Source: Escherichia phage MirsaeidiM_Esher6. From it: a stretch of 22,558 nucleotides of DNA. Below the pieces are notes generated by a model. That model had not been told where the DNA came from. It did not search any database and saw nothing but the letters and a program-made list of their open reading frames with translations. This document shows, piece by piece, positions 6,093 through 21,697 of the stretch. Within the stretch, counting starts at the first letter, position 1. Each line of letters begins with the position of its first letter. The stretch is from the sequence record PQ585404, one strand, 5' to 3'. Position numbers and translations under genes: made by a program.

Positions 6093-6115
6093 GTTTCCTA
6101 TAGTGATAGTTTAGT
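6093..6115 (-). promoter_or_regulatory. Phage RNAP promoter upstream of gene 17 (phi17-like)
   Basis: Minus strand reads ACTAAACTATCACTATA|GGAAAC, one of five copies of the same 17-mer followed by G. Overlaps the gene 16 stop codon. Confidence 0.8.
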
Positions 6116-9100
6116 CCTTGATGTGGATGCCCTGCTCCTCAAACGTTCCAAGCAACAGCTTCTGGGTAATGGGGTCGTTCGGAACCAGTTCACGGAACGT
6201 GTTATACATCCCGGTCATGTAGTCTCGCTCGTTGACACGGGTATCAGCCTTGAGGTAGCCAGCCAAGTTGTAAGCAGAAACGCCAACGTTAGCAGCATAT
6301 CCGAAAGCTGGAACCTGCTCCAAGAAGTTACCAACAACATTCATCACAGGGTCACTTGTAGCCGCACCAAACGTGATGGCACGTTCAGGCTTCTCTGTAG
6401 GCGAACGAGGAAGGATAGACGAGCGGAGTAACTTAGTGTCCTCATACCCAGCGATGCCACCCAGAATGTTGGCGACCCCAAGAGGTCCACCCAAGTGGGA
6501 GCTACGGGATAGAGCCGCATAGCCAATCATCGTCGGGTTCAGGGCTTGCTTCAGGTACTCACGGTCACGACCGTCCTGCATAGCGTAAGCCTTGATGTGC
6601 GCCTGAGCCATGTAGTACATCCCAGCCAGACCCATAGAGATCACAGTGGACAGTGCAGCATCCATAGCTCGGTTGTTCTTGGTGGCGTTGTAGAAGGTAC
6701 GCATGGTTCGACCGTTGATAGACTTGATAACGTAGTTCTTAAACTGCAAGACAGTCTTCGCTATCGGACCATAAGCCTTGGCGTCCATGTTGCTCAGCTT
6801 GTGGGGACGGAGCAGGGTCTCATCAGCGATGGTGTCACCCATACGCCAGAGGTCCATAGCCCTTGGGTCCTGACTGAACGCCTTCTTATCCTTGATGGTG
6901 TACTTCCCGTCTGGACCACGCGTCACTGACTCACGGATGAGGGACTTAATGCCCTTCCACTGCTCGTCAGAGATACCAGCGGTCTTCAGCCAGCGGTCAT
7001 CGAACTTACGCTTACTACCAGTCAGGCTATGCTCCACGATGTCAGACAGGAAGCCTTGACGTCCAGCATCTAACAGGTAGTTGGTCGTACCGTTGAGGAC
7101 TTTAGTGAACGGAGAGCGTACTGCAAGTTCGCCAGTGTAATACTTGGCAGTCCCCAGAGCTGTAGCTGTACCACGACCGAGGTCACTGTAAGATCGCAGA
7201 CGGTCAATGACATCCTGTTTAGACGGACGGATTGAGTCATCCAGTTCCTTACCGAAGATAACATTGTGCAGGTCCTTAATCTCTGAGGCCCCAACCTTCT
7301 TGTTACGGAAGGCTAGGTCACGGAAAATTGGGACTCCATGCAGCATTGCACGAACGTTGCCACGAGCCAGCATACCACCAATCTCCGTTAAGTTCTGAAC
7401 ACCCATGTAGGCATTCTTAGCGAAGAACGATAGGTCTGTCATTGTGCGCATCACGGTAGCGAAGGCTGCATCATCAGCACCATCACGTCGAGCACGACCA
7501 GTTAGAATCTTCAAGGTGTCACGTAAGGTAGATACTTCACCTTTCAACTTACCGTCATCCCCAGCCTTGTTCATCATGGTCTCAACCAAGTCCTTCATGT
7601 CCTTCGTGGTTTTGCCTGTACCAGCCATGATAGCAATATCGCCATTAATTCGACGGTTGTAGGCCGGGACAATCTTGTCCATGTCCCACTCACGCAGGTT
7701 GTTGACACTGAAGGTCTGACCATTAGGTAGGACGATTGACATATCGCTATCGAACAGGTTACGAGCCTCAAGGAAGCTGTTGTTCTCCAGACCCACCAGA
7801 CCATTGATGTTCTCTTCCATTACGGATGAACGCTCGAACTGCTCGGTGTGAGAGATACCATAAGCCTTATCGTTGGCGTACTTATCGACCGCAGCCGCAA
7901 GTCCTTCTGGAGTCAACGTAGGATCAGCCTCTAAGAGTGCCTCGTCCACACGTTTCTTGACCTCAGGTCGAGACGCATAGCTGGTCAACCATGACTTCTT
8001 GATGGCCTCCTGTAGTGCCTCTGGACTCCCAAGCTCCTTGATGTATAGCTCCTTCATCTGGTTGCTATACACATGCGGGACGTAGGTTCCCTTGAAGCGG
8101 CTGCCCGGAAAGATAGACTGAGCGTCTGGCCGACCAAACATAGCTGGGTTCTCCATCATCTCACGCTTGGCGTCAAACTGGTTCTTCAGTAGGTCATAGA
8201 CTTTAAGTTCTCCCGGAGTAAGTTCAGCCTTCAGGTTTCCGCTGCCATCTTCGATAGCCATAGACACGCGCTGGTAGATGTCCTGACGGAATGCTCCAGA
8301 GTCTCGCCAGAATGCTGTCTGGAAGTACGGGTCCTTCAGTGCCTCAGTAACCGCATCATCGATGTCGTTGTAGAACCGATGGTCCACAGCACGCAGTCTC
8401 TCGAATACGTCTGACGCAGTGGTCCCGATTTTACCTGAGGCCCCTGACTGCATACCAGTCGGTGAACGCACTAAGTCAGCAGCTACTCCACGAATCTCAG
8501 GGTTCTCAGACCGAAGCAGCTTCAGGCCAATCTCGGTAAGTCCACCAAGGTTCACACCAGCAGCGGCACGTTCTGGCTCAATCACTTCGTCAAAGACCTT
8601 ACGTGTCTTAGGGTTCAGAGGGTTCTCACCAATCAGGATTGAACCATCTTCCAGTCGTACACTACCCTGCTCATTCGGAACGTCAGCGAACTTAACTCCT
8701 TGATGACTAAAGGTCTGCTCACCTTCCTGAATAGGGAGACGAGACAGGTCCTGACCATCAATGTTACGAGCGGTCTCACGAGCTTCCAGACGTGTAGCTG
8801 GGCCAGCGAACTCATTAGTGTTGCGACCTAAGGCTCTGCCTAACCCATCAGCGATAGCAGTCATACCACCACCGAAGAGAGCACCACCAAGGATAGCTTC
8901 AGCCACATGAGTATCGCCACCAGCCACTGAGGTACGGGCCATCTCGGACACACCAGCAAGTGCTCCAGATTGAGCAGCCACGGTGAACATCTTGTTGACC
9001 AGCTTCGCACCTTTGCCAACCTGTCCAGCGATAGGAACGTAGGTCAGCGGGTCTACACCAGCACCAATCACACCAGCTGCTAACTGAGCACCAGTCCCAG

Positions 9101-10007
9101 CCTTGGCCTTCTCTTGGTCCAACTTCTGGTTCTCAAGCGCCAAGTTAATAAGCTCGGTCAGGTTCTGAGGAGAGCCACCAGTAATGACACCGTAATACTG
9201 AGGGAGAACTCCAGCGTTACGAATCTGGTCCAGCTCCTCACGAGACCACTTATGGTTGTTCCAGCGGGTAGGGTTGAACACATCGCCAATGACATCAAGT
9301 GAGTCCTCGGTCTGACCAGCGCGGATAGCCACGCCGACCATAGAGTTCTTCACTTCAGCTTCTGTAGCCGAGCCGAAACCGAACCACGTAGAGCGGCCCT
9401 CTCGTTCCTGCATGGTCTCGCCAGTAGACTTATAGAACATCTCACTGAACGATTCGTTGGGAGCTTCAGGTGCTTGACCCTCAATGTTTAGACCAGCAGC
9501 GGTCGGAAGGTTCTCACCCAGAGCTACTTTAGGTTTAGCCTTGAGTCCTTCCGTGAGTGCGTCAAATACGTTAGCGCTTACTGGTGGAGTCTTTGGGGTT
9601 ATGCCTCCCGCACCACTTAAGGCACGAGAGACGCCAGTCTTGTAGACCTCATGGTCATACCGGGAACCAGTCTCGTGGTAGCCGATAGCCTCAGACAGAG
9701 AGGCGAGGACATCAGGGTTCGTCAAGTCGATACTTTGGGTCGCTGGAATGCCAGTAGCAGCCACAACCGAGTCTATGTAAGACTGAGTGTCGTTCTCGCT
9801 GGGGGGCGCCCATCGGTTGATAATCTTCTCGATTGAGTCATAGCCTTGGCGACCGTAGCTTTGAAGGTTTTTCGCTAAGGCTCGGACCCCAGATTCAGGA
9901 CTGTCGAAGATGACGAATGCACCATCGTCGCCTATAGCACCTTCCCACTGGTCTTTGGACTTACGGAGGTTACCGGGGTTTGCGTTCCTTACACCACGTG
10001 TTGCCAT
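6111..10007 (-). CDS. gp16: Internal virion (core/ejection) protein D, T7 gp16-like
   Basis: 1298 aa; from about residue 130 onward it aligns by eye with T7 gp16 (e.g. GGSPQNLTELINLA, GKTTKDMKD, FDSDMSIVLPNGQTFSVNNLREWDM). ATG with SD AAGGAG. The N-terminal ~130 aa does not resemble the T7 SLT domain. Confidence 0.88.
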   Translation of the reverse strand: MATRGVRNANPGNLRKSKDQWEGAIGDDGAFVIFDSPESGVRALAKNLQSYGRQGYDSIEKIINRWAPPSENDTQSYIDSVVAATGIPATQSIDLTNPDVLASLSEAIGYHETGSRYDHEVYKTGVSRALSGAGGITPKTPPVSANVFDALTEGLKAKPKVALGENLPTAAGLNIEGQAPEAPNESFSEMFYKSTGETMQEREGRSTWFGFGSATEAEVKNSMVGVAIRAGQTEDSLDVIGDVFNPTRWNNHKWSREELDQIRNAGVLPQYYGVITGGSPQNLTELINLALENQKLDQEKAKAGTGAQLAAGVIGAGVDPLTYVPIAGQVGKGAKLVNKMFTVAAQSGALAGVSEMARTSVAGGDTHVAEAILGGALFGGGMTAIADGLGRALGRNTNEFAGPATRLEARETARNIDGQDLSRLPIQEGEQTFSHQGVKFADVPNEQGSVRLEDGSILIGENPLNPKTRKVFDEVIEPERAAAGVNLGGLTEIGLKLLRSENPEIRGVAADLVRSPTGMQSGASGKIGTTASDVFERLRAVDHRFYNDIDDAVTEALKDPYFQTAFWRDSGAFRQDIYQRVSMAIEDGSGNLKAELTPGELKVYDLLKNQFDAKREMMENPAMFGRPDAQSIFPGSRFKGTYVPHVYSNQMKELYIKELGSPEALQEAIKKSWLTSYASRPEVKKRVDEALLEADPTLTPEGLAAAVDKYANDKAYGISHTEQFERSSVMEENINGLVGLENNSFLEARNLFDSDMSIVLPNGQTFSVNNLREWDMDKIVPAYNRRINGDIAIMAGTGKTTKDMKDLVETMMNKAGDDGKLKGEVSTLRDTLKILTGRARRDGADDAAFATVMRTMTDLSFFAKNAYMGVQNLTEIGGMLARGNVRAMLHGVPIFRDLAFRNKKVGASEIKDLHNVIFGKELDDSIRPSKQDVIDRLRSYSDLGRGTATALGTAKYYTGELAVRSPFTKVLNGTTNYLLDAGRQGFLSDIVEHSLTGSKRKFDDRWLKTAGISDEQWKGIKSLIRESVTRGPDGKYTIKDKKAFSQDPRAMDLWRMGDTIADETLLRPHKLSNMDAKAYGPIAKTVLQFKNYVIKSINGRTMRTFYNATKNNRAMDAALSTVISMGLAGMYYMAQAHIKAYAMQDGRDREYLKQALNPTMIGYAALSRSSHLGGPLGVANILGGIAGYEDTKLLRSSILPRSPTEKPERAITFGAATSDPVMNVVGNFLEQVPAFGYAANVGVSAYNLAGYLKADTRVNERDYMTGMYNTFRELVPNDPITQKLLLGTFEEQGIHIKD

Positions 10008-10012
10008 TATTA

Positions 10013-12295
10013 TTACTCCTTACTGATTAAGGTGTTTGCGATACCCTCCAGTGAGACGTCATTGTACATCCCACCGCGCTTCTCGATGTTGGCCTCTCGG
10101 TCAGCTCGACGTTTGTCACCAGCAGCTTTAGTCCCGACGATACGCGCTCGCTTGTTAGCGTCACGTTCTGCCTGAGCATATGCGGCATCTTGTGCCTTCT
10201 GCTGTTGTTCGCGGTAGAGTTTACCTACAAGTTCTTTATCGTAGCGAATACGAATAGTCCCTGTAGCGTCTTGGAGGAAGATAGAGCCGTTCTGTTCAAC
10301 AACGGACAACTGAGAGTTAACTACCCAAGGGTTGGCCTTAATGAGCTGCTTACGAGCGGTGTCTATAATGTCTCGACCAACCTGCCACGACTCTGGGTTA
10401 TCCCCGACCATAAGCTGGTGCTTGGACGCCATGCCGATGGACTTACCGTCAGAACCTTCAGACTGGAACGTTACGGTGTTCTCATTCAGCCAGCGTTGAG
10501 TCTGCTGAGTTGCAGCGTCAGCGTTACCTGTACGATAGTACCATGAGTCCCAGACCTTACGAGCACTTGAGTCTAGAGACGTAGGAAGACGCGAAAGGTC
10601 CTTATTCCGAGAGTCGTTCTTCAACTCCTGCCACGCCCTGTCTGACTCCATGCGCATCTCACGGCTTTGACTTGCAGCTTGCTTATCAGCTTCAATCATC
10701 GTCTGAGGGTCCAGACCCATCTTATCCATCTGGTCGAACGTAGAGAACAACTGAGCTTGGTCAGGATACAGAGCAGCGAAACTTGAAGGGTCCTGAGTGT
10801 AGGCACGACGAAGAGATTCGAAGCGTTGCATCTTGTCTGGGTCGTACTGCCCACGGATGACCGCAGCTTGCCACTCACCAGCAGCGTCCTGAGTAAGCGT
10901 TTGGAAGGCATTACGGAACGGACCGTTGTTAGTGTCAGCTCTTAATAATGCAACCTTCTGTGCGTCCTTAGCAGCCTCAGGGATGTCCATCTGGTCAATC
11001 TGCTGTAGCTTAGCAGACGCATAGTTGTTCATGTCTGAACGCTTGAACTCTCCTGTGGCTACAGAGACCGGAAGGTCCTCATAGTTGGTGGACACGTTGT
11101 CTCCAGCCAGACGTCGCTGATACACTTGGTCAATGACCAGTTGCTTGTTCTGGGTCTGGATTAACTTCGTGTTCTCCTTCGCCTGTTCAGCAGACTTACG
11201 CTTTACCGCTTCCAGTAAGCTGGCTTCGGCATTAATAAGCATCTGACGCTGAGGCGTGAGTTCTTCACCCGGTTGAAGCAGGTTGTTCTGCTCCTTGAGT
11301 TTTTGAATCTGGGCCAGACCGATGGTTGGGTCATCCTGAAGAATCGCAGACTGAACGCCTAACGACAAGTCTTCCTGATACTTAGCCACCAGCTTGTACT
11401 CAGTTCCTTGTGCCTCAACAATAGCAGCGTTGAAGACATCAGGTCCTACAATCTCTTCGACTGTAGCATCCACGCCGTTAAGGGTGATTCGCTCGCCTCG
11501 TACTTGCTGTAGGAAGTTTGAGCCGCCTGACTTCTGGATTGCGTCACGGACCGTCTGGGTAACGACCTCCCGCGCTCGCTGGTCCGAGGGGATAGCAGCA
11601 GTAGTCAGTCCATCACGAAGGTAGGCCATGAATGTCTTGCCAGACTCAGGTGAACGCATCAGGTCGCCATCGTTCAGGAATGAGTTCATCTCAATACGAG
11701 TGTTCAACATTGCTGTCTCTTCAGACTGCTTGCTGAAATACTTATTGAAAGACCCATAGATAGCGATGTTGCGGTCTGTGATGTTATCGTTGAACCCACG
11801 CTGGAAGAACTCGTCTGTAGGGTTAATACCCGCCTCTTCAGCATAGGACTTAGCGGCGTCCTGAAGTCGCTGGTGGCGATACTCTTCCATGTCCTGACGT
11901 GTACGGAACTCACCGTTCTGAATCTTAACGTTAATCTCGTCGTCTACAGCAAAGGCAGCATTACGACCAGTCTTGACTCGAAGTGCTTCCATAGCGTAAG
12001 GGTCGTCCTGATACAGCAGTGTGCCGTTCTGGATAGCCTCACGTCTTTGTTGAGGTGTCAGCTTACGGATAATCTCGTTAGACCGCTCGTCGGCCCGTGT
12101 CTTCTCCTCGTCCTTGAACTGCTTGTACAATCCAGTCCCAGACTCAACGAAGTTGGTTAACGCCCGAGCCAGACCTGAGTCACCAGTTGGAGCCTGAACG
12201 CTGGCTGCTTGATAGTTGACGGCGATAGTTTTACCCGGCGCTCTGCCACGACCCATAGTCCGATTAGCCAGAGCTGATTCAATATTACTAGCCAT
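10013..12295 (-). CDS. gp15: Internal virion (core) protein C, T7 gp15-like
   Basis: 760 aa (T7 gp15 is 747 aa) at the syntenic position. ATG with SD GAGGAGG. Confidence 0.82.
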   Translation of the reverse strand: MASNIESALANRTMGRGRAPGKTIAVNYQAASVQAPTGDSGLARALTNFVESGTGLYKQFKDEEKTRADERSNEIIRKLTPQQRREAIQNGTLLYQDDPYAMEALRVKTGRNAAFAVDDEINVKIQNGEFRTRQDMEEYRHQRLQDAAKSYAEEAGINPTDEFFQRGFNDNITDRNIAIYGSFNKYFSKQSEETAMLNTRIEMNSFLNDGDLMRSPESGKTFMAYLRDGLTTAAIPSDQRAREVVTQTVRDAIQKSGGSNFLQQVRGERITLNGVDATVEEIVGPDVFNAAIVEAQGTEYKLVAKYQEDLSLGVQSAILQDDPTIGLAQIQKLKEQNNLLQPGEELTPQRQMLINAEASLLEAVKRKSAEQAKENTKLIQTQNKQLVIDQVYQRRLAGDNVSTNYEDLPVSVATGEFKRSDMNNYASAKLQQIDQMDIPEAAKDAQKVALLRADTNNGPFRNAFQTLTQDAAGEWQAAVIRGQYDPDKMQRFESLRRAYTQDPSSFAALYPDQAQLFSTFDQMDKMGLDPQTMIEADKQAASQSREMRMESDRAWQELKNDSRNKDLSRLPTSLDSSARKVWDSWYYRTGNADAATQQTQRWLNENTVTFQSEGSDGKSIGMASKHQLMVGDNPESWQVGRDIIDTARKQLIKANPWVVNSQLSVVEQNGSIFLQDATGTIRIRYDKELVGKLYREQQQKAQDAAYAQAERDANKRARIVGTKAAGDKRRADREANIEKRGGMYNDVSLEGIANTLISKE

Positions 12296-12306
12296 TAGTC
12301 CTCCTC

Positions 12307-12873
12307 TTAGCTATGACCTGTAGGTGTGCCTTTAGCAGCACTAATCGGTGCAGCACCATCACCAGAGCTGGACGCTCCAGAGATTGACTTACCAGCAGCG
12401 TACCCCTGCATCCCGGCGCTTGCAACATTAAGTGCATGAGCCAGTGGGCTGGTCTTGATGATTTTACCTTGACCGTGGATAGCAGACTTGGTGTTCTCAA
12501 TGTTGGCGATACGGTTCCCGAAGATAGCCGCATAGTCACGGTTGTAGCTTTCGGTAATCCCTGCTCGCTCCTTGACTGTATCTCCTGCGACCTGACGTTC
12601 AATCCTGTCCATAGAGTTACCTTCCAGACCGGACTCAGCCACCGCAGCTCGGACCATACCCTGATTGCGGATACCGTTGAGCGTGGTCTCTGTCAGTTCA
12701 GCCATCTGCTGCTCCTTCAGGTCTCGCTCCTGCATCTTCAGGTTGGCATCAGAGTAATTCATTTGTTTAATCATCTCCTGAGCCTGACGGTTCTGAGCGT
12801 CAATTGCTGCACCTTCGGCCTTGGCTTGTTGAGACGCGGACATAGTGGCCCCTGCTACAGCCATAACGCCCAT
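12307..12873 (-). CDS. gp14: Internal virion protein B, T7 gp14-like
   Basis: 188 aa, Ala/Gln-rich; MSASQQAKAEGAAIDAQNRQAQEMIKQ parallels the T7 gp14 N-terminus. ATG at 12873 has no obvious SD, so the start is slightly uncertain. Confidence 0.78.
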   Translation of the reverse strand: MGVMAVAGATMSASQQAKAEGAAIDAQNRQAQEMIKQMNYSDANLKMQERDLKEQQMAELTETTLNGIRNQGMVRAAVAESGLEGNSMDRIERQVAGDTVKERAGITESYNRDYAAIFGNRIANIENTKSAIHGQGKIIKTSPLAHALNVASAGMQGYAAGKSISGASSSGDGAAPISAAKGTPTGHS

Positions 12874-12900
12874 GCCGATAGAAATTGGTTCGCAAATTTT

Positions 12901-12975
12901 CTAATCCCCCTTCCGGCTATCAGCCAGATACTTAGCAGCCTTCTCAATCTTGCAGACTGTGCAGACCTTCGTCAT
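12901..12975 (-). CDS. Small ORF (24 aa, CxxC) translationally coupled to gene 13
   Basis: Absent from the ORF track (below its size cutoff). ATG overlaps the gene 13 TGA as ATGA, with SD AAGGAGG 5 nt upstream. Translation MTKVCTVCKIEKAAKYLADSRKGD, stop TAG. Confidence 0.4.
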   Translation of the reverse strand: MTKVCTVCKIEKAAKYLADSRKGD

Positions 12976-13430
12976 ACGTCCTCCTTGGAGATTGTGAATA
13001 ATTGAAAACGCTCACCAGTGACAGGACTCTCGGTCCAATCATCATGGAATTTAGCGCCAAGCAACTTCAAGAATTTAATGTGAGACTTATTGTCTGACCA
13101 CACGTAGTTCCAGATGGTCCCGTATTGGTCTAACATTAAGTCCCTGTACTCAGAGATACGCTTTATGAACTCCCGCTTCTCTTTAGGTCTCAGCTTATAG
13201 ACAAGACCTGAAGTCAAGAACCATACGTTATCCCCTTGGTTTCCACCATATGCAAACACTTCGCCTACACCGTTCGTTAAAACCACAGATGACGGAGATA
13301 AATGCTTAAGCAGTCTTTCAGAGAGACCCACGGTTGACCCGTAGTTTGCTTTGCATTCATTAACATCATCTGCCGAAAGATGCCGCATAAAGTAGTGGAC
13401 ATCTGGTTCCGTAGCCTTGCGAATATACAT
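12972..13430 (-). CDS. gp13: Internal virion protein A, T7 gp13-like
   Basis: 152 aa directly downstream of a phage promoter, between genes 12 and 14 as in T7. ATG with SD AGGAG. Confidence 0.72.
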   Translation of the reverse strand: MYIRKATEPDVHYFMRHLSADDVNECKANYGSTVGLSERLLKHLSPSSVVLTNGVGEVFAYGGNQGDNVWFLTSGLVYKLRPKEKREFIKRISEYRDLMLDQYGTIWNYVWSDNKSHIKFLKLLGAKFHDDWTESPVTGERFQLFTISKEDV

Positions 13431-13459
13431 AAAGTCTCCTTATAACCTTAAGGGACTAT

Positions 13460-13482
13460 AGTCCCTATAGTGATAGTTAAGG
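13460..13482 (-). promoter_or_regulatory. Phage RNAP promoter upstream of gene 13 (phi13-like)
   Basis: Minus strand CCTTAACTATCACTATA|GGGACT. The initial transcribed sequence GGGACUAUAGUCCC is a perfect hairpin. Confidence 0.75.
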
Positions 13483-13506
13483 TAAATCTATAGGCCCTTC
13501 AATAAG

Positions 13507-15864
13507 TTAGACGGAACGAGCTTTCTTAGCGTATGACGCCTCCCAGCCACATCCAACGATTGACACTGGGGTAGGATAGTCGGACTCTAAGGTTAGACTC
13601 GTGGTTAATGCGTTACCATTCATAGCGAAGCGATACTGCCCGTCACCAATGTTAGTAGTCCCTATGGTTTGCTGACCAAGGGTGTACCCATTAAAGGTGT
13701 TAACGAACTCTCGCTCACCGTTTCTGACAATGAGTCTCAGAGCGCCAGTGTCCTTGTAGTTGACCCAAGCCCGACGAAGCTGTAGACGACCAGTGTCTTC
13801 AGACTGAGTGCCTCTATCATCTTCAATCTTAATCAGGAACCGTGAGAACTTGTAGGACATCATATAGGACCGTCCGATGAACACTGTACGTCCTGACCAA
13901 TCGCCGTTGAGGGTAATCACAGTAGAGATACTGGTTAATTCCCCAAGGTCCAAATAAGCACCCTGACTGTCAATCAGATAGTACCGACCGGGAGACGGAG
14001 CGCTACCGCCATAAGCAGCACCAATGTCAACCGTAGTCTTATATGTGTCAGCATTAAACGAGCCAATTGGGATGACCATAGACACCTTGGAGTCAACGTG
14101 GAGTCTATACGGCTCTGACGGAAAGTCAGTTGCCTCCTTGATGAACTTAAGGTGCTCAATGTCTACCCCTCCTTGATGCTGACGAACGATGAACATGGTA
14201 GAGCCAATAGAAGCAGACGCCAGAATCTTATCATCTTTAGGGAACTCCCAGTGTGACCAAGAGGCTTGAAGCTGTACGCCGTCCTTAAACAAGAACTTGT
14301 AGATGTAGATACGGTTGTATGCACCTGTAGAGTTGACGCAGATGTAGTTCTCAGTCCCTGTACCTTGAATATCAAACACCCCGTTAGGGATGTAGGACAA
14401 TACGTGACCGGTTGTATCATCAGCATCCTTCACATCAGACACATCAGCTACAGCGAAGTATCGCTTAATGCTGGTGAATGACCCACGAGGAGCTGAGAAG
14501 AAGACTGAGCGTCCTACAGCGAACGGTCTGGCATTGTCGCCTAAGGCAAACTCTGAGCCTACATCAAGCTGGATAGACTTCGAGGTAAGGACCCCAGAGC
14601 TTGTCATCACGAACTGAACTTCATCCGACCAAAGTAGTAGCTGCTCGCTAAACGGAACGGCATACTTAAGGATTGAGATTCGAGGGTGGCTTACAGCTAC
14701 ATCAATAGGGTCATCATCACTCAGTGTCGCCACACTCTTAGGGAAGAACGCAAAGTAGCTGGCTGAACGGCTCATGATTACGTTCTCGCCTGACAAGAAC
14801 CCAAGCCTATTCCTGTAGAAGAACACATCGTTAATCGTAGCATCCACGAAGCTAGGCATAGGGTTTGTGTCATCATTCCCAGCACCACGCTTAGACCAGT
14901 CCAGAGCCTTGAACTCAAAGGAGCCATCAGTTTGTCGTACCAGAGCGTGTGGCATTGTGGTGTTATTGAACCCAGTGACAACTCCAGGCTCCACTGTCTC
15001 CTTCCACGTCTTAGTGTTGGAGTCATACATCACGTAGTATTCGTCGGCGCTACTGTTTGTCTCACCTTGAATCTTAATGATATACCCATTAGGAGCGGCA
15101 AGAGGTAGTTTAGAGATTGTCTGCACAGTATCTAGGACTGGGCTTATTAGCTGGTTAGCGTAGCCATCCTCCGTCTCTACTGAGTTAATATCGGTCCCAG
15201 AAGGAGCTGTGATTAGCAGGAATCCAGACCCAAGGTCAAACGTGAAGGTAGGGTAGGCAGTGACAAGAAGGTCTCTCAGAGCTGCACCAATGGCTTGAGC
15301 GTCCACCTTAGGCGGGTCATTCTCGGCATCGTTACCTGCTGGTAGCTTATGCGAGACCTTAACGCCACCGTTGATTCCCACCTTAAGGGTTCGACCATAC
15401 TGTCCACCACGCAGGTTAATTAAAGCTCGTGCTTTGCGGTTATAACCAGAGTGTGACTTCTCGCTTCCACCTTTGACGACAACCTTACGGTTAACGACGA
15501 ACGTATAGTCTGCCACGGTAACGACACGGATGTCATCTCGTGGGTTTGAGGACTTAACGTAGTCTACCTCACCTGACACTGAGTATTGGTTACCACTCAA
15601 GTCAACTACCTGAATGTCGGACCCATTGAACACGATGTAATACTGCTCATGCTCGTCACGGTTAATCAGGTGGAACTTAGGGTTGCTCCCAACGTCGATG
15701 TTAAGACGTCGCTTGAAGACTGTAGGTGGACGCTTCTGGAGTCCATCACTCTCGGATGACCAGCAGTTAACCTGTGCCTCTCCTTGGTCTGAGAACCTCA
15801 GGATGTCAGGCTGTTGGCTAATGCCACCCTTAAGATTTTTTATGCTTTGCGTAATAAGAGGCAT
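13507..15864 (-). CDS. gp12: Tail tubular protein B (T7 gp12-like)
   Basis: 785 aa (T7 gp12 is 794 aa) at the syntenic position after gene 11. ATG with SD GGGAGGG; start overlaps the gene 11 stop. Confidence 0.85.
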   Translation of the reverse strand: MPLITQSIKNLKGGISQQPDILRFSDQGEAQVNCWSSESDGLQKRPPTVFKRRLNIDVGSNPKFHLINRDEHEQYYIVFNGSDIQVVDLSGNQYSVSGEVDYVKSSNPRDDIRVVTVADYTFVVNRKVVVKGGSEKSHSGYNRKARALINLRGGQYGRTLKVGINGGVKVSHKLPAGNDAENDPPKVDAQAIGAALRDLLVTAYPTFTFDLGSGFLLITAPSGTDINSVETEDGYANQLISPVLDTVQTISKLPLAAPNGYIIKIQGETNSSADEYYVMYDSNTKTWKETVEPGVVTGFNNTTMPHALVRQTDGSFEFKALDWSKRGAGNDDTNPMPSFVDATINDVFFYRNRLGFLSGENVIMSRSASYFAFFPKSVATLSDDDPIDVAVSHPRISILKYAVPFSEQLLLWSDEVQFVMTSSGVLTSKSIQLDVGSEFALGDNARPFAVGRSVFFSAPRGSFTSIKRYFAVADVSDVKDADDTTGHVLSYIPNGVFDIQGTGTENYICVNSTGAYNRIYIYKFLFKDGVQLQASWSHWEFPKDDKILASASIGSTMFIVRQHQGGVDIEHLKFIKEATDFPSEPYRLHVDSKVSMVIPIGSFNADTYKTTVDIGAAYGGSAPSPGRYYLIDSQGAYLDLGELTSISTVITLNGDWSGRTVFIGRSYMMSYKFSRFLIKIEDDRGTQSEDTGRLQLRRAWVNYKDTGALRLIVRNGEREFVNTFNGYTLGQQTIGTTNIGDGQYRFAMNGNALTTSLTLESDYPTPVSIVGCGWEASYAKKARSV

Positions 15865-16430
15865 TAGTCCCTCCCGATGTCAGACATCATGTTGTAGCGA
15901 CCAGTGTCCATCTCATACTCCATAACCTGCTGATAGAGTTCTGCTTCCTGCTCACGAAGGTATAGCTCTGACTCCGGGCTACCGAAGAACTTAGCGTTGA
16001 ACTCACGGCTAGCTTTAGTGACGATGTAGTCCCTGAAGACCACAGGCATCTCGGAGAATGGCTTCATCTCCACAAGCTCTACCGTGATAGGGTCGGTGAA
16101 AGTGGTTGACTGAGTGGACAGGTCGTACAGGTATCCACCCATGTTGCTGTAGTAGCTGGTGGCCCCAGCGGTCATTACACGAAGGTATGACGGCAAGAAT
16201 CGAATCCTATTGTCTTGGACATCAGGTGTCAGGACAGCAGCTTCATTGATGTTAAAGTTCCAGCCTTTAGCTTGGACCTGACGATTAACACGATGCAGGA
16301 TACGTTGAGCGTTCGAGACGTCAGCGTTACCTTCGTCAAGCTGTAGGACTGCCGGTTCACCGATAGCAGCTAACATATCGTTGATGGCGTCTAAGTCATC
16401 GTTAGCATTCAGTGGAATGTATTGAGCCAT
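15864..16430 (-). CDS. gp11: Tail tubular protein A (T7 gp11-like)
   Basis: 188 aa; ...AINDMLAAIGEP...AQRILHRVNRQVQAKGWNFN...VTKASREFNAKFFGSPE... matches T7 gp11 motifs. ATG with SD AAGGAG. Confidence 0.88.
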   Translation of the reverse strand: MAQYIPLNANDDLDAINDMLAAIGEPAVLQLDEGNADVSNAQRILHRVNRQVQAKGWNFNINEAAVLTPDVQDNRIRFLPSYLRVMTAGATSYYSNMGGYLYDLSTQSTTFTDPITVELVEMKPFSEMPVVFRDYIVTKASREFNAKFFGSPESELYLREQEAELYQQVMEYEMDTGRYNMMSDIGRD

Positions 16431-16441
16431 AGGTTTACTCC

Positions 16442-16531
16442 TTAACGGTCATAGGCGCTAGACGGTGAGCTGGACAGCAGGTACGCCCAGAATAAGACGA
16501 ATAGTGCTAACCCTGTGTAAATAAGGACCAT
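16442..16531 (-). CDS. Small hydrophobic ORF (29 aa) between the T-phi-like terminator and gene 11
   Basis: Absent from the ORF track. Translation MVLIYTGLALFVLFWAYLLSSSPSSAYDR. SD AAGGAGGG about 4 nt upstream of ATG. Its TAA stop lies inside the gene 11 SD (cgTTAAGGAGtaaacctATG). Confidence 0.4.
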   Translation of the reverse strand: MVLIYTGLALFVLFWAYLLSSSPSSAYDR

Positions 16532-16544
16532 AGTCCCTCCTTAA

Positions 16545-16582
16545 GCAAAAAACCCCTCAAGCACCCGAAGGCACCCAAGGGG
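16545..16582 (-). terminator. T-phi-like transcription terminator after the capsid gene
   Basis: Minus-strand RNA CCCCUUGGGUGCC-UUCG-GGUGCUUGAGGGG followed by UUUUUU. The stem needs G-U pairs, so it forms only on the minus-sense transcript. Very similar to T7 T-phi (AACCCCTTGGGGCCTCTAAACGGGTCTTGAGGGGTTTTTTG). Confidence 0.85.
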
Positions 16583-16588
16583 TTTCAA

Positions 16589-17763
16589 TTAGTTGTTGGA
16601 CTCAGCCAGTTTAGCGGCCCTGTTCGCAGCACGAGTACGCGCAGCTTTCTGTTGAGGAGTTAGAGTCTCCTCTTCAGGTGCAGCCGCTACTGTAGCGACG
16701 TTAGGTTGGCTAAAGGTGCTTACGCCGCTGGGCTGAAAACCAGTGCGCCAGCCGCTTCAGGACGCAGACCACCATGACCCATAGCGTATTTACCAACAAT
16801 CAGGTCACCCTGAGCATCTACGTCACGGTCACGTTCCAGCGCCAAGTCACGCAGCTTCACAGTGCCTACAGCAGAACGGTGAGAGAACAGGCCCACAACG
16901 TTGTCCAGAGCAACTTTAACATCACCAGCAGCAGTAGCTGGGAAGGCGTGCTTCTGACCAGTCGCAATAGTGATACCATCGGCACCACGAGTTTCACCAG
17001 CACCACCCTGAGTCAAGTGTGGAACTTCAACAACCACGAAGCCCATTACGTTACGGATGTTACCAGTCTCTGGGTCAATCAGCGCAGCATAGTTAGCAGC
17101 GTTCGGCATCAGAGCCGCGAGGATTGCAGAGTAGTTGTCAGGCGTGGTGTAGAAGTAACGGTCGCCAGCAGGAACGTAGTTGGAGGTCAGCTTCGCACGA
17201 GCAATGGTCAATTGACCAATGATTGCTTCACCCAGTTTAGCCGGGGTGTTGAGGTCAGCTTTCTTACCAACTCCCAGTACGGACGCAGTGCCCAGACCAG
17301 CGATGTTCTCGTTGGATGCATCCGGGAGGTTACACAGGATCGCCATTTCAGCCAGCACCGCACCATCAGCAGCGATAGCCAGAGCTTCGCCCAACTGGTT
17401 GGAATACTCACCAGCCACGTCGTAGTGGTTCATCGCGTCTTCAATGTCGAAAATCATCACATCGGCAGTCAGCAGACCATCAATGGTAATCACTTTCTCG
17501 GTATGCTTGATACCTTTACGCTTATCGGACAGTCGCTCACCAGGAGCCAGATACACACCAGAGGTGCGACCCATGACCGGGAACTGAGCAGACTTACCGT
17601 TCTGAATGGTACGGACAATATGCTTGTCAGCAGTTACAGAGCGGCGAGTGAATGCGGTCAGGACTTCACCAGCAAATACCTTCAGGAACAACGCTAGAGC
17701 GTCGGAACTGGATTTGCCTTTACCTTGGTCTGTACCAATTTTCTGACCCGGAACGTTTGCCAT
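16589..17763 (-). CDS. gp10B: Minor capsid protein 10B, predicted product of a -1 ribosomal frameshift near the end of 10A
   Basis: Slippery G GTT TTC (plus-strand 16735..16741, complement) lies 4 codons before the 10A stop. The -1 frame stays open for 49 codons (GFQPSGVSTFSQPNVATVAAAPEEETLTPQQKAARTRAANRAAKLAESNN) and stops at TAA 16589..16591, immediately before the terminator hairpin. Confidence 0.6.
16720..17763 (-). CDS. gp10A: Major capsid protein 10A (T7 gp10A-like)
   Basis: 347 aa with extensive identity to T7 gp10A (e.g. LALFLKVF.GEVLTAF, KHTEKVITIDGLLTADV, AILAALMPNAANYAALIDPE, RNVMGF.VVEVPHLT.GGAG, KYAMGHGGLRPEAAG). ATG with SD. Confidence 0.95.
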   Translation of the reverse strand: MANVPGQKIGTDQGKGKSSSDALALFLKVFAGEVLTAFTRRSVTADKHIVRTIQNGKSAQFPVMGRTSGVYLAPGERLSDKRKGIKHTEKVITIDGLLTADVMIFDIEDAMNHYDVAGEYSNQLGEALAIAADGAVLAEMAILCNLPDASNENIAGLGTASVLGVGKKADLNTPAKLGEAIIGQLTIARAKLTSNYVPAGDRYFYTTPDNYSAILAALMPNAANYAALIDPETGNIRNVMGFVVVEVPHLTQGGAGETRGADGITIATGQKHAFPATAAGDVKVALDNVVGLFSHRSAVGTVKLRDLALERDRDVDAQGDLIVGKYAMGHGGLRPEAAGALVFSPAA

Positions 17764-17865
17764 ATGATAATTCTCCTATTCAATTGAAAGATAAAGTTTA
17801 TTACTTACTGTATGCCCAATCCGTATGGACTGAAGTAATAGGGGAACCTTGAGTCTGTCTCTTGG

Positions 17866-17888
17866 TCTCCCTATAGTGATAGTTTAGT
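17866..17888 (-). promoter_or_regulatory. Phage RNAP promoter upstream of gene 10 (phi10-like)
   Basis: Minus strand ACTAAACTATCACTATA|GGGAGA, followed by a ~100 nt leader and SD AGGAG before the capsid ATG. Confidence 0.85.
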
Positions 17889-17889
17889 C

Positions 17890-18774
17890 CTACAGGCTTG
17901 AGGCAGCTACCTTAGCGCGAACTTCCATCGTGTACTTAGCGTCACGCAGGTATCGCGGGTCACTCATAGCCTTAACCATGTCAGCCTTGGAGCTGAATGC
18001 TTCGGTCTGAGGAGCCTTAGGTGCGACCACAGGTTTAGCCTGAGTGGTGATGGTACGCTGAGGTTTAACACCCACAGCTTTACCCAGAGTCTTGCCAGCC
18101 AGATTCAGCAGAGCCTTGGTAGTCGCAATGTCCTTACGAACGATAGCAGCTTCCAGTGCTTCACGAGTTGACGGGTCGTTGGACTCAAGATGTGACAGGA
18201 TGCGATTAAACTGTTCAGCACCACCAGCGTAGCGAACCACACCAGCAGCATACTGTTCAGCAAGAGCTTCCTGACCACGGACAAACGAATCTACGAAACG
18301 CTTGGTGTAACCTGCTTCCTGTAACTTAGCGTAGGATGCGTCAGACAGCTTACCGTCCTTGGCGTATTCAGCCTTGATAGCGGTAATTTCATCAGCAGTG
18401 ACCTTGCCAGCTTCTACAGCAGAAGACACCATGTCGTCGAATGCAGCTTCGTTTTCATCCAGAGCGGTGACACTTTCAGTCAGCTCTTTCGGTGCATCAC
18501 CTAGTTCGATGAACTCAGGTTGCTCACCATCGGTCTCAGACTCTTCGTCATCGGACTCGTTGTCTTCATCACCCTCAGTCTCTTCGACGTTCTCGTCTTC
18601 TTCGGTCGCCTCTTCGTTTTCGGCTTCCAGTTGCTTGAAGGTAATAGCGTCATCGCCATCACGAACAGCTACGTCCTGTTCAAGCATAGACTTCTGGTGT
18701 TCGTTCAGGTCCTCAACGGAACCAGTGATTGCATTAGAGCTAACGCCGAACTCGGCATAAACTGATTGAGACAT
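17890..18774 (-). CDS. gp9: Capsid assembly / scaffolding protein (T7 gp9-like)
   Basis: Acidic protein; MSQSVYAEFGV...VAVRDGDDAI... parallels the T7 gp9 N-terminus. The track ORF starts at an upstream GTG (18810); I place the start at ATG 18774 because it has SD AAGGAGA and matches the T7 N-terminus. Confidence 0.85.
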   Translation of the reverse strand: MSQSVYAEFGVSSNAITGSVEDLNEHQKSMLEQDVAVRDGDDAITFKQLEAENEEATEEDENVEETEGDEDNESDDEESETDGEQPEFIELGDAPKELTESVTALDENEAAFDDMVSSAVEAGKVTADEITAIKAEYAKDGKLSDASYAKLQEAGYTKRFVDSFVRGQEALAEQYAAGVVRYAGGAEQFNRILSHLESNDPSTREALEAAIVRKDIATTKALLNLAGKTLGKAVGVKPQRTITTQAKPVVAPKAPQTEAFSSKADMVKAMSDPRYLRDAKYTMEVRAKVAASSL

Positions 18775-18853
18775 TAAGTCATTCTCCTTTAAGTCGTTAA
18801 TAGGAAACACCTGCCTCGTCTAGTTTACTCACCTAGAGTTGGACTTATGGTGT

Positions 18854-18876
18854 TGTTCCTATAGTGATAGTTTAGG
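18854..18876 (-). promoter_or_regulatory. Phage RNAP promoter upstream of gene 9 (phi9-like)
   Basis: Minus strand CCTAAACTATCACTATA|GGAACA. Overlaps the gene 8 stop. Confidence 0.78.
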
Positions 18877-20440
18877 CTTGAGCCATGTCCTCACCAGCTC
18901 CCTGACCTACAGCAGCGCCCATGTTAGCACCAGCAGCACCAGCGCCTTGGACTACAGCCTGTTGAGACGACTGCTCAGCCATGCGCTGAATCTTCTCGTC
19001 TTGCGTCAGGAGTAGGCCAGCGGTGTCGATACCCAGAGCGTTCAGGAGTCGTAGCTTAAGGGTCGGCAAGTTGATGTCCGGGTCCTGAGATAGCGGCTGA
19101 AGACCAGTCATCATGTTAACCGCCTGAGTTAGCTTCTCCAAGTCCTGACCACGACCTAACGCTTCCAGACCAGTGGAGACCGTAGGCTCTACCGCTTCTT
19201 TCGGAAGGTCAGGAATCATGCCAGCAGACTGAAGTTGGTTCATCAGCACACGGACGATAGGTAACTGAAGCTCTTGGGATTGTACTGAGTACACGCCACC
19301 TAAGGTCGCCTCCAGTTCGCCAGCAACATAACGAATCTCTTCAGCAGTGACTCGCTCGGCATTACGCTGAACAGCACTATTAAGAAGGAAGGCCCAACCT
19401 AAACGTTGCTCGATAGCGTCAGCCACCGATTTAGCAATCGTAAAGTCCTGACCTTTCGTCAGTTGCAGGAAGTTGATGTCCTCAACGCGACCAGCCACGA
19501 ACTCACCTGTAGCCGCCTTATTCAGACGACGAGGTTGCGTGATACCGTTCGGGTTAACGAGGCCCACCACCTTGGAGGCTACCTTAGCCATTTTGGTGAT
19601 AGCTTCTGTAATCGTCTCCAGCGAGTTCAGGTCTCCCAGATACTCCTCGCAGTAAGAACGACCATAGTCTTCACCATCCAGTCGAACCATTCGTACCGGG
19701 ATGTATGGACATGCAGTCAGTGGGTAGGAACCATCGGTCCCTGATACCTCAATGCCTTCCACTTCTTCATAGCGCAAATACTCGTCGTCCTGACGGTAGA
19801 TGTGCGTATATACTTCCAGCTCTGTGTCAGGCTCATAGTCGTCTGCGTTGAGTTGTGACTTCACGTCTTCCGGTAGAGCACTAAACGCTACCTTGTCGAG
19901 AGTCACAATCTGTAAGATGTTACCGAAAGCATCACGTTGAACAACGTAGGACACTAAGCGGTACATTCGCATAGGACTGTAGGTTCCCTGTTCAGGCTCT
20001 GGAATGTAGAGAAGACAGTTACCGGAGACTATAAGCTGCTTAAGAGCCTCAAACAATGGCACACGGAAACTGTTTGTCTCCATGTAGGCCATCAACACAC
20101 GCTCGACCATAGCAAGCCCCTCGTCAACACGAGCAGCAGCCTCTGAGTCCTGACTCAAGGTCTTTGCCTCATATTCGGAGACTGTCAGTCGCATCCACGG
20201 TGACTGAGGGAATAATGCCAACATCAGCTTTGCAGCCAAGTTGTTCAAGCAGCGAGCACCCACAGCTTGCCACGGAGTGGTGTACTCAGTAGACGAGTTG
20301 TCGGACTCCTTAGGAAACAGTGACGGGATAGTGACAGCAGCACAGTTCTGAGCGCGTGTCTCATATGGCTGTCTACCGTTCTTCAGTCGGTCATAGACCG
20401 CTTTGGCTCCTTCAGCAGCGAACCCTTCACGTTCAGCCAT
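18872..20440 (-). CDS. gp8: Portal / head-to-tail connector protein (T7 gp8-like)
   Basis: 522 aa (T7 gp8 is 536 aa) at the syntenic position upstream of scaffold and capsid. ATG with SD AAGGAGGTGA. Confidence 0.88.
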   Translation of the reverse strand: MAEREGFAAEGAKAVYDRLKNGRQPYETRAQNCAAVTIPSLFPKESDNSSTEYTTPWQAVGARCLNNLAAKLMLALFPQSPWMRLTVSEYEAKTLSQDSEAAARVDEGLAMVERVLMAYMETNSFRVPLFEALKQLIVSGNCLLYIPEPEQGTYSPMRMYRLVSYVVQRDAFGNILQIVTLDKVAFSALPEDVKSQLNADDYEPDTELEVYTHIYRQDDEYLRYEEVEGIEVSGTDGSYPLTACPYIPVRMVRLDGEDYGRSYCEEYLGDLNSLETITEAITKMAKVASKVVGLVNPNGITQPRRLNKAATGEFVAGRVEDINFLQLTKGQDFTIAKSVADAIEQRLGWAFLLNSAVQRNAERVTAEEIRYVAGELEATLGGVYSVQSQELQLPIVRVLMNQLQSAGMIPDLPKEAVEPTVSTGLEALGRGQDLEKLTQAVNMMTGLQPLSQDPDINLPTLKLRLLNALGIDTAGLLLTQDEKIQRMAEQSSQQAVVQGAGAAGANMGAAVGQGAGEDMAQA

Positions 20441-20451
20441 TCGTCACCTCC

Positions 20452-20700
20452 TTAAATAGAAATACCGCCACCAGAGGTACGAGAGACCTGAAGGCTACGC
20501 TTACCGGAACGCTTCACTTTCTTCTCGTCAGATGCTGTTGCTTCGGTATCCACATCTTCCACTTTATCGTTCGGTACTTCCACTGGCGCTGCTGGGGTCT
20601 GAGCCGCAACAACCTTAGGTGCATCGTCAGAGCCAAGACCCACTGTCCCTAACGTACTTTTCACCACTTTCTTGAGAGCCTTACTGATTGATTTACCCAC
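20452..20700 (-). CDS. gp7.3: Tail/virion protein (T7 gp7.3-like)
   Basis: 82 aa, lysine-rich N-terminus (GKSISKALKKVVKS), C-terminus ...SRTSGGGISI as in T7 gp7.3 (...SGGGINI). Starts at GTG with SD AAGGAG 7 nt upstream. Confidence 0.78.
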   Translation of the reverse strand: MGKSISKALKKVVKSTLGTVGLGSDDAPKVVAAQTPAAPVEVPNDKVEDVDTEATASDEKKVKRSGKRSLQVSRTSGGGISI

Positions 20701-21097
20701 GGTTAATCTCCTTAGTTGTTACGATGTCTACCGACACGGAAACATGCTTGACACGAGAATACCAGCCAAGACCCCAACGCTTGCACTCTTCGTCTATGAT
20801 GTGTCTGACAGTCTCAAGAACCTTGCGGGAGGACTGCGAGTCACGACGAATAGCGACGATTGAAAGGTCAAGACCTGGAGTCGGTCGGTGCCAAGATGCG
20901 GTAGCCAGCATGTAGAGATACGCTACTGGTTGACCTGAGACATCGTAGATTGTGTACTCTTCACCATCGAACTCGTCAGCCATACGGTAAGTATGAGCCT
21001 TGAAGTCCTCGAATGACTTGAAGTTAGACTGCCCGTCTTCCCAGAGGCGGCAAGCGCACATGTGGCGACCTTCGCGTGAGTTGAGATATGGTAGCAT
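20693..21097 (-). CDS. gp7: Virion / host-range protein (T7 gp7-like)
   Basis: 134 aa (T7 gp7 is 133 aa) at the syntenic position between 6.7 and 7.3. Assigned by size and position only. Confidence 0.6.
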   Translation of the reverse strand: MLPYLNSREGRHMCACRLWEDGQSNFKSFEDFKAHTYRMADEFDGEEYTIYDVSGQPVAYLYMLATASWHRPTPGLDLSIVAIRRDSQSSRKVLETVRHIIDEECKRWGLGWYSRVKHVSVSVDIVTTKEINRG

Positions 21098-21101
21098 TGT
21101 C

Positions 21102-21326
21102 TTACCCCATGTTGACGCCAGAGGCTCGCATAGCGCGGCTAACTGACGATTTATCTTTAGGTGCAGACTCCTTCTTGACCTTCAGGTCTTTGATACCTTT
21201 GGTCTCGTTGGTGTCAACATCCGATTCAGCCCCGATGTCAACTGACGCAACTTCCTCACTCAGAGGTGCTGGTTCAGGTGCTTGGACCGAAGGCTTCGGA
21301 GTGCTAATCTTTGGACTGAAACACAT
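21102..21326 (-). CDS. gp6.7: Small virion protein (T7 gp6.7-like)
   Basis: 74 aa beginning MCFSPKISTPK..., as T7 gp6.7 begins MCFSPKIKTPK. SD GGAGGG. Confidence 0.82.
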   Translation of the reverse strand: MCFSPKISTPKPSVQAPEPAPLSEEVASVDIGAESDVDTNETKGIKDLKVKKESAPKDKSSVSRAMRASGVNMG

Positions 21327-21340
21327 AGTCCCTCCTACAG

Positions 21341-21613
21341 TTAATCGAACTGAACGGTATCTTTCAGCTCACGACGCATAGCAATCGCAGAGTCGAGAGT
21401 GTCAGAACAATACTGGAGACCCTTGATGAACCCGGCAATGAACGCATCGCTGTAGCCTTGCTGCTTGAGGAGACTGATAGCTCCCATCTTCTCAGCATAG
21501 CTTGCGTTGAACAATACGTGCAGGAACTGGATGGCAGACTGGGAGATGTTAGGGACATCGAGTCTTTCTTCCTGTAACTGCTTAACAACGTTTTCAATAG
21601 CATTAATCGCCAT
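21341..21613 (-). CDS. gp6.5: Hypothetical protein at the T7 gene 6.5 position
   Basis: 90 aa ORF immediately downstream of a phage promoter, ATG with SD AAGAGGAG. Assigned by synteny and size. Confidence 0.65.
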   Translation of the reverse strand: MAINAIENVVKQLQEERLDVPNISQSAIQFLHVLFNASYAEKMGAISLLKQQGYSDAFIAGFIKGLQYCSDTLDSAIAMRRELKDTVQFD

Positions 21614-21674
21614 CTTGAATCTCCTCTTTAAGTTAAGACTAAAGTCTATCTTATAGTCATATCTTAGGTCCTAA

Positions 21675-21697
21675 AGTCCCTATAGTGATAGTTTAGT
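21675..21697 (-). promoter_or_regulatory. Phage RNAP promoter upstream of gene 6.5 (phi6.5-like)
   Basis: Minus strand ACTAAACTATCACTATA|GGGACT. Confidence 0.82.

Follow-up and report, generated by a model that had tools for sequence, protein, structure and literature searches.

Repeats with the character of K1F-type late promoters in the structural-gene half of Escherichia phage MirsaeidiM_Esher6

Which RNA polymerase reads the late genes of Escherichia phage MirsaeidiM_Esher6, and do the small differences among its repeated promoter-like sequences carry any meaning? The question arises from a stretch of 22,558 nucleotides (nt) of this phage (sequence record PQ585404), which as a whole is called the window here. 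In it an earlier note, made from the letters alone, had described five promoters that share one sequence on the minus strand, that depart from T7 in the bases that set polymerase specificity, and whose variable first transcribed bases may set different strengths. We conclude that the five repeats are almost certainly late (class III-type) promoters of a K1F-like Kayfunavirus, recognised by the single-subunit RNA polymerase of the phage itself. Promoters of this type have been described before, tested in vitro and used in synthetic biology, and what is found here is a new isolate-level variant of them.

The minus strand of the window holds five exact copies of the 15-mer AACTATCACTATAGG, as the earlier note had it, and the 15-mer was absent from all 100 dinucleotide-preserving shuffles of the window. 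In an unbiased repeat search, the family came out as the top and largest direct-repeat family of the window. When the five sites are aligned the conserved stretch runs from -16 to +2, with the consensus N-C-T-W-AACTATCACTATAGG (the full site being N-C-T-W-A-A-C-T-A-T-C-A-C-T-A-T-A followed, from +1, by G-G), and all five sites end in the core TCACTATA at -8 to -1 with GG at +1/+2. Given from -17 to +6, with the exact 15-mer copy in brackets, the sites are the following:

21675..21697, minus strand, phi6.5-equivalent promoter: ACTAAACTATCACTATA then GGGACT, +1 G at 21680 (15-mer 21679-21693)
18854..18876, minus strand, phi9-equivalent promoter: CCTAAACTATCACTATA then GGAACA, +1 G at 18859 (15-mer 18858-18872)
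17866..17888, minus strand, phi10-equivalent promoter of the major capsid gene: ACTAAACTATCACTATA then GGGAGA, +1 G at 17871 (15-mer 17870-17884)
13460..13482, minus strand, phi13-equivalent promoter: CCTTAACTATCACTATA then GGGACT, +1 G at 13465 (15-mer 13464-13478)
6093..6115, minus strand, phi17-equivalent promoter of the tailspike/endosialidase gene: ACTAAACTATCACTATA then GGAAAC, +1 G at 6098 (15-mer 6097-6111)

The span that had been given for the family, 6093-21697, has as its exact limits +6 of the first site and -17 of the last, and the four initial strings that had been listed (GGGAGA, GGGACT, GGAAAC and GGAACA) all read as stated.

In a megablast of the window against 50,697 phage records, Escherichia phage MirsaeidiM_Esher7 (hereafter Esher7) matched at 98.0% identity over 100% of the window, and phage K1F, the type species of Kayfunavirus (Studiervirinae), at 95.6% identity and 99% coverage. 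In reverse complement, the window is the late, structural-gene half of such a genome, from gene 6 (partial) to gene 19 (partial), and its gene 17 product is the K1F endosialidase tailspike of 1064 amino acids (aa). The public record of Esher7 (PQ593108.1) lacks an annotated coding sequence at 7081-11049 for gene 16, the gene of internal virion protein D; since an open reading frame (ORF) of 1298 codons is intact in the window at 6111-10007, we take this to be an annotation gap and no biological difference.

All five sites are co-directional with the genes (all minus strand), stand before the starts of genes 6.5, 9, 10, 13 and 17 at distances of 35-108 nt, and match one to one in position the T7 class III promoters phi6.5, phi9, phi10, phi13 and phi17. 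From the start at 21680 it is 67 nt to the ATG of gene 6.5 (21613), the distance for T7 phi6.5, at position 18545 of the T7 RefSeq record, being 60 nt. The start at 18859 lies 85 nt before the ATG of gene 9 (18774, preceded by a Shine-Dalgarno sequence), which is the same 85 nt as in T7 (phi9 at 21865, gene 9 start at 21950 in that record). The other distances are 108 nt from 17871 to gene 10 (63 nt in T7), 35 nt from 13465 to gene 13 (33 nt in T7) and 53 nt from 6098 to the ATG of gene 17 at 6045 (58 nt in T7, where phi17 at 34566 stands 15 nt past the end of gene 16 in the RefSeq record). In two of the sites the TAA at -15 to -13 is also the minus-strand stop codon of the gene upstream, namely gene 16 (6111-6113) and gene 8 (18872-18874), so these bases of the phi17 and phi9 sites are doubly constrained. 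The orthologous sites in the RefSeq record of Ro45lw, another Kayfunavirus, are labelled 'promoter phi6.5', 'promoter phi17' and so on; the phi10 orthologue is among those annotated as promoters, and a terminator is annotated after gene 10 too. By definition the class III promoters of T7 are all identical from -17 to +6, whereas the five sites vary at -17, -14 and +3 to +6; they are nevertheless nearer to their consensus than the early and middle promoters of the relatives, which vary at -12, -3 or -2.

The orthologues of all five sites in K1F, Esher7 and Ro45lw share the core of the window sites and have almost identical initial sequences, and the phi9-equivalent site is identical in K1F, Esher7, Kc166A and GW1 except for its specificity bases. 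The phi13 region is common to 221 phage records, at 73-99% identity. In the wider IMG/VR collection the 18-mer CTAAACTATCACTATAGG occurs in about 25 contigs, nearly all of 39-40 kb, and where a stretch holds several copies these are all on one strand. Three IMG/VR contigs of other sizes (72.9, 29.3 and 15.7 kb) each carry a single exact copy, which could be chance matches, fragments or misassemblies. The five-member family proposed at first is five-membered within the window and no further. The complete K1F and Esher7 genomes carry eight exact copies each and three to four variants with one or two mismatches, all co-directional, and the phiOR-equivalent copy falls just past position 1 of the window (+1 at 38869 in K1F). 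Since the relatives' genomes hold about 11-12 such promoters, the number five is an effect of the window edge. The variants sit in the early and middle region. Their departure from the consensus is at -12 (AGCTA) or at -3 (TCACTGTA), their first bases are GGA(C/T), and they parallel the weaker class II promoters of T7. Of the five Kayfunavirus genomes that were examined, four have a phage-type promoter some 75 nt before their own RNA polymerase gene, with +1 at these positions:

K1F: 2491
Esher7: 37199
Kc166A: 3296
GW1: 13258

In Ro45lw a variant site, TCACTAAA, is found at 2417, and the T7 record annotates no phage promoter between phiOL and gene 1. A promoter in this place could mean that the polymerase gene drives its own transcription.

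The activity of this promoter type is documented in relatives. Takatsuki et al. (2025; PMC12272871) reported that the purified Ro45lw polymerase transcribes from ACTTAACTATCACTATAGGGACT in vitro, mapped its +1 to a G by deep sequencing and arrived at a minimal promoter ACTTAACTATCACTATAGGGA, from -17 to +4, the trimming of +5/+6 having caused no drop in in vitro transcription. The site at 13465 equals this validated promoter at every base from -16 to +6. A 2026 genome note (PMC13298934) describes eight copies of CTWAACTATCACTATAGG, the same 18-mer, as promoters of Kayfunavirus Sparklingdew. Temme et al. (2012; PMC3458549) define a K1F subfamily of the polymerase beta-hairpin with a promoter binding region of its own; the exchange for K1F sequence covered residues Q744-I761 of T7 polymerase and bases -12 to -7 of the promoter, and T7 polymerase with the K1F loop gave a 17-fold induction on the K1F promoter and was reported orthogonal to T7. 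The native K1F polymerase and its promoter are in use as an orthogonal expression and mutagenesis system. The K1F promoter itself has the sequence TAATAACTATCACTATAGGGAGA.

Compared with T7 (TAATACGACTCACTATAG), all five sites differ at -12 to -9, as the earlier note had proposed, and also at -17, -16 and -15, which it had not listed; the difference at -14 that it had given for the whole family stands for four of the five, the site at 13465 having T as in T7. The K1F-type binding region A-A-C-T-A-T-C at -13 to -7, preceded by C-T at -16/-15, is exact in every one of the five and recurs in K1F, Esher7, Ro45lw and 109 distinct IMG/VR sites, while the sites of Kc166A follow the K1F type from -13 to -7 but have ATT(A/T) at -17 to -14. 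The polymerase gene (gene 1) belongs to the early region outside the window, and the specificity loop was therefore read from the relatives' RNA polymerases, which have 893 aa and are 64% identical to that of T7. In an alignment of the polymerases of T7, T3, K11, K1F, Esher7, Ro45lw, Kc166A and GW1, the residues at T7 positions 746, 748, 756 and 758 are:

T7: RNRQ
T3: RDRQ
K11: RKNK
K1F, Esher7, Ro45lw and Kc166A: RNNQ
GW1: RDRQ

The K1F-type polymerases thus have N in place of T7 R756, together with other loop changes that include a different loop tip, and the loop TRLNLMFLGSFNLQPTVNKG, with N at T7 position 756, is present in every examined relative with AACTA promoters. In the genomes scanned, the promoter bases at -13 to -9 are ACGAC in T7, AACTA in the four RNNQ phages and AACCC in GW1. 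The last of these, a Cronobacter phage, is a Kayfunavirus too, and its polymerase is 89% identical to that of K1F, but it has D748/R756 in the loop and T3-type promoters (AACCCTCACTATAGG); polymerases within the genus are 86-91% identical, and in GW1 the loop residues and the promoter bases have both gone over to the T3 type. Loop and promoter therefore covary within the genus, RDRQ going with AACCC and RNNQ with AACTA, and the change of R756 to N goes with C to A at -9 of the promoter. In the structural and genetic literature N748 reads -10/-11, R756 reads -9 and Q758 reads -8, and substitutions at -9 to -7 lower T7 polymerase activity to less than 5%. The idea that the cognate polymerase has its own specificity loop is in this way supported indirectly, by the comparison that the earlier note had proposed, made here on relatives. 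The covariation gives direct comparative support for a matching polymerase loop, and we infer that the polymerase of this phage carries the K1F-type loop as well.

By analogy with T7, the beta-hairpin of the specificity loop would make its contacts in the major groove, at about -12 to -7, and an N-terminal loop of the polymerase would read -17 to -13; the conserved TATA at -4 to -1 would be melted and transcription would begin at the first G after it. With AACTA at -13 to -9 (ACGAC in T7), the binding region of the K1F type would be matched by the K1F-type loop, in which the main difference would be the N at the R756 position, the residue that reads base pair -9. From such a pairing it follows that T7 polymerase should use the promoters of the window poorly, and a K1F-type polymerase those of T7 poorly.

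Several points weigh against the reading of the repeats as promoters with a specificity of their own and a graded strength. The phage's own polymerase gene lies outside the window, and its loop is taken from relatives that are 95-98% identical. This exact genome is known from sequence only, and the transcription evidence comes from relatives. A 2025 paper calls the orthogonality of the grafted T7(K1F) polymerase and T7 limited, with appreciable non-cognate activity, and PMC12272871 ascribes a variable background in the PURE system to cross-reactivity of T7 polymerase, with no figure for this promoter. Finally, when the five leaders were folded, the phi10 and phi13 transcripts were found to begin with predicted 5' hairpins spanning +1 to +14 or +31, but none of the leader hairpins of the five transcripts was significant against shuffled sequences.

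The differences among the five sites may nevertheless have a function. Each position keeps its own initial sequence across K1F, Esher7, Ro45lw, Kc166A and GW1, the forms in these five Kayfunavirus genomes being:

phi6.5: GG(G/A)A(C/T)TTT
phi9: GGAAC(A/T)
phi10: GGGAGA(C/A)C
phi13: GGGACTAT
phi17: GGAA(A/T)

These sequences are held where the flanks drop to about 78% identity, and through the specificity switch of GW1, and the 109 distinct IMG/VR sites use a small set of recurring initial sequences. The initial transcribed sequence of the capsid promoter is that of the T7 consensus, GGGAGA, which is the T7 optimum. These patterns agree with functional tuning. The sites are probably tuned in strength or escape by their differences at -17, -14 and +3 to +6, and it is plausible that the ones at +3 to +6 set strength, as had been suggested. 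The position-specific initial sequences may even encode a fixed hierarchy of late-promoter strengths.

The alternative that survives best accepts that the promoters are real and holds that the differences at +1 to +6 (and at -17/-14) are neutral or constrained by the leader RNA, by which stability hairpins, RNase III processing and translation signals are meant, so that there would be no code for strength. We regard this as quite possible, if on balance doubtful. It would account for the finding that the Ro45lw promoter kept RNA synthesis in vitro without +5/+6, and the initial sequence travels with the downstream leader across relatives. In the predicted phi10 and phi13 hairpins the bases from +1 onward are included, so that the initial sequence would also be part of an RNA structure. 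The constancy of the position-specific sequences in diverged flanks and across the GW1 switch is harder to reconcile with it, as are the identity of the capsid promoter with T7 class III at +1 to +6 and the failure of the hairpins to exceed shuffled sequences. Temme et al. (PMC3458549) likewise speak against it, in describing T7 promoters as having a strength-determining region that can be separated from the binding region. A role in strength is plausible but unproven, since the pattern fits a leader-RNA constraint equally well and the removal of +5/+6 was harmless in Ro45lw.

A further possibility concerns the upstream edge of the promoter. C-16 and T-15 are invariant in all five window sites and in the 109 distinct IMG/VR relative sites. 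As they are kept in K1F, Esher7 and Ro45lw, where T7 has A and A, they may be an uncharacterised determinant independent of the specificity loop. Relative to T7, the AT-rich recognition loop region in the N-terminal part of the relatives' polymerases has a different sequence, with about 11 residues inserted after the loop, and these differences accompany the different promoter bases at -17 to -14. The protein partner of C-16/T-15 may be this insertion together with the lineage-specific sequence beside the AT-rich recognition loop. That this pair is a second specificity determinant, and that the initial sequences form a fixed hierarchy of late-promoter strengths, are readings that we put forward tentatively and consider rather unlikely.

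It is very improbable that the repeats are ordinary T7-type promoters, used efficiently by T7 polymerase or by that of any member of the Studiervirinae. The bases from -8 to +2 (TCACTATAGG) are identical to T7, some non-cognate activity is reported for grafted-loop polymerases and T7 polymerase cross-reactivity is suggested in the PURE-system screen (PMC12272871), all of which would fit such a reading. On the other hand, all five sites differ at -12 to -9, the base at -9 among them, and single substitutions at -9 to -7 already bring T7 activity below 5%; the relatives' polymerases have N for R756, the residue that reads -9; loop and promoter covary in the genus, as GW1 demonstrates; and T7(K1F) and T7 are reported (PMC3458549) to be orthogonal on each other's promoters. 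Four substitutions at -12 to -9 together with this published orthogonality make full cross-recognition by T7 polymerase very unlikely.

That the repeats are instead host sigma-70 promoters, replication or packaging signals, recombination sites or the work of chance is scarcely credible, for although some T7 phage promoters double as replication origins, no copy of the motif arose in 100 shuffles, the sites keep a strict position and orientation before gene starts, their sequence is identical to the experimentally validated polymerase promoter of Ro45lw, a scan of the window for sigma-70-like promoters gave no excess over shuffled sequence and none coinciding in sense orientation with the five sites, and Rfam at gathering thresholds gave no matches in the window.

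Further members of the family were sought with up to three mismatches to AACTATCACTATAGG and with the looser core TCACTATAGG plus or minus one base. The only further match was AACTATCACTGTATG, with two mismatches, at 4876-4890 on the minus strand inside gene 17, which has a reverse-strand shadow at 4898. It is present in Esher7, its K1F equivalent has an additional mismatch, and it is embedded (4876-4898) in an inverted repeat, ACAGTGA-tag-TTCACTGT, in coding sequence. We rejected it as a candidate and consider that it is probably not a promoter, given that it has T at +1, lacks C-16, is not conserved in K1F and is part of a coding inverted repeat.

Between genes 10 and 11 there is a candidate terminator for the phage polymerase:

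16547..16583, minus strand, Tphi-like terminator: a G+C-rich hairpin, CCCCTTGGGTGCCTTCGGGTGCTTGAGGGG, then T6

This hairpin was found by the terminator scan, its position matches that of T7 Tphi and of the annotated Ro45lw terminator, and its sequence resembles T7 Tphi; from this it would terminate the phage polymerase. The scan for host-type terminators, in which this hairpin was found, gave no excess over shuffled sequence in the window and nothing at the five promoter sites. The five sites would drive genes 6.5-8, 9, 10, 13-16 and 17-19, with the Tphi-like terminator after gene 10, and promoters and terminator together would bound the late transcription units.

The surroundings of the terminator and one other junction hold a few further features. 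After the stop codon of gene 10A (16722-16720) the -1 frame, read by eye on the minus strand, is open for about 44 codons to a TAA at 16591-16589, and this open frame at 16589-16722 suggests a capsid variant of the T7 10B kind, made via frameshifting. In the Ro45lw record a small ORF of its own is annotated in this area. Between the Tphi-like terminator and gene 11 lies a 109-bp segment (16432-16540), present in Esher7 and absent from K1F, with a Shine-Dalgarno sequence and a hydrophobic ORF of 29 codons, MVLIYTGLALFVLFWAYLLSSSPSSAYDR. Between genes 13 and 14 a 108-bp segment (12865-12972) is likewise present in Esher7 and missing from K1F, where the junction has 30 bp. The segment contains a Shine-Dalgarno sequence and an ORF of 24 codons, MTKVCTVCKIEKAAKYLADSRKGD. 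As Ro45lw has an endonuclease VII gene at the same junction, this segment may be the remnant of a homing-endonuclease insertion. The idea that the two segments are copies of one mobile element was rejected, the segments being unrelated to each other.

With these assignments the window is placed as the late region of a K1F-like phage, with five predicted transcription start sites and one candidate terminator assigned. K1F-type polymerase/promoter pairs are already orthogonal expression parts, and the five further natural variants therefore add marginally to the diversity of such parts. The comparison of the K1F type with GW1 is of modest use: among near relations within one genus, residues 748/756 of the loop have changed along with bases -11 to -9 of the promoter, which makes a clean natural illustration of polymerase-promoter coevolution.

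Among known systems the nearest are the K1F and other Kayfunavirus promoters (PMC3458549, PMC12272871, PMC13298934), whose core of 15-18 nt is identical to that of the window sites. Nothing substantive separates the window sites from these, the differences being T for the G of K1F at +7 of the phi17 leader and minor changes in the flanks. With T7 class III (consensus TAATACGACTCACTATAGGGAGA) the sites share the 23-bp architecture, identity from -8 to +2 and the same five genomic positions, as well as a similar spacing to the gene starts, promoters that overlap upstream stop codons and, after gene 10, a Tphi-like terminator. They differ from T7 in having NCTW for TAAT at -17 to -14 and ACTA for CGAC at -12 to -9, and GGGAGA at +1 to +6, which the class III promoters of T7 share, is found in the window at the phi10-equivalent promoter only. 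The T3 promoter is AATTAACCCTCACTAAAGGGAGA, with AACCC at -13 to -9. A-13, A-12 and C-11 are common to T3 and the K1F type; at -10 and -9 T3 reads C and C, the K1F type T and A. The T3 polymerase has D748/R756 against N748/N756 in the K1F type, and T3 represents another natural specificity variant of the same system.

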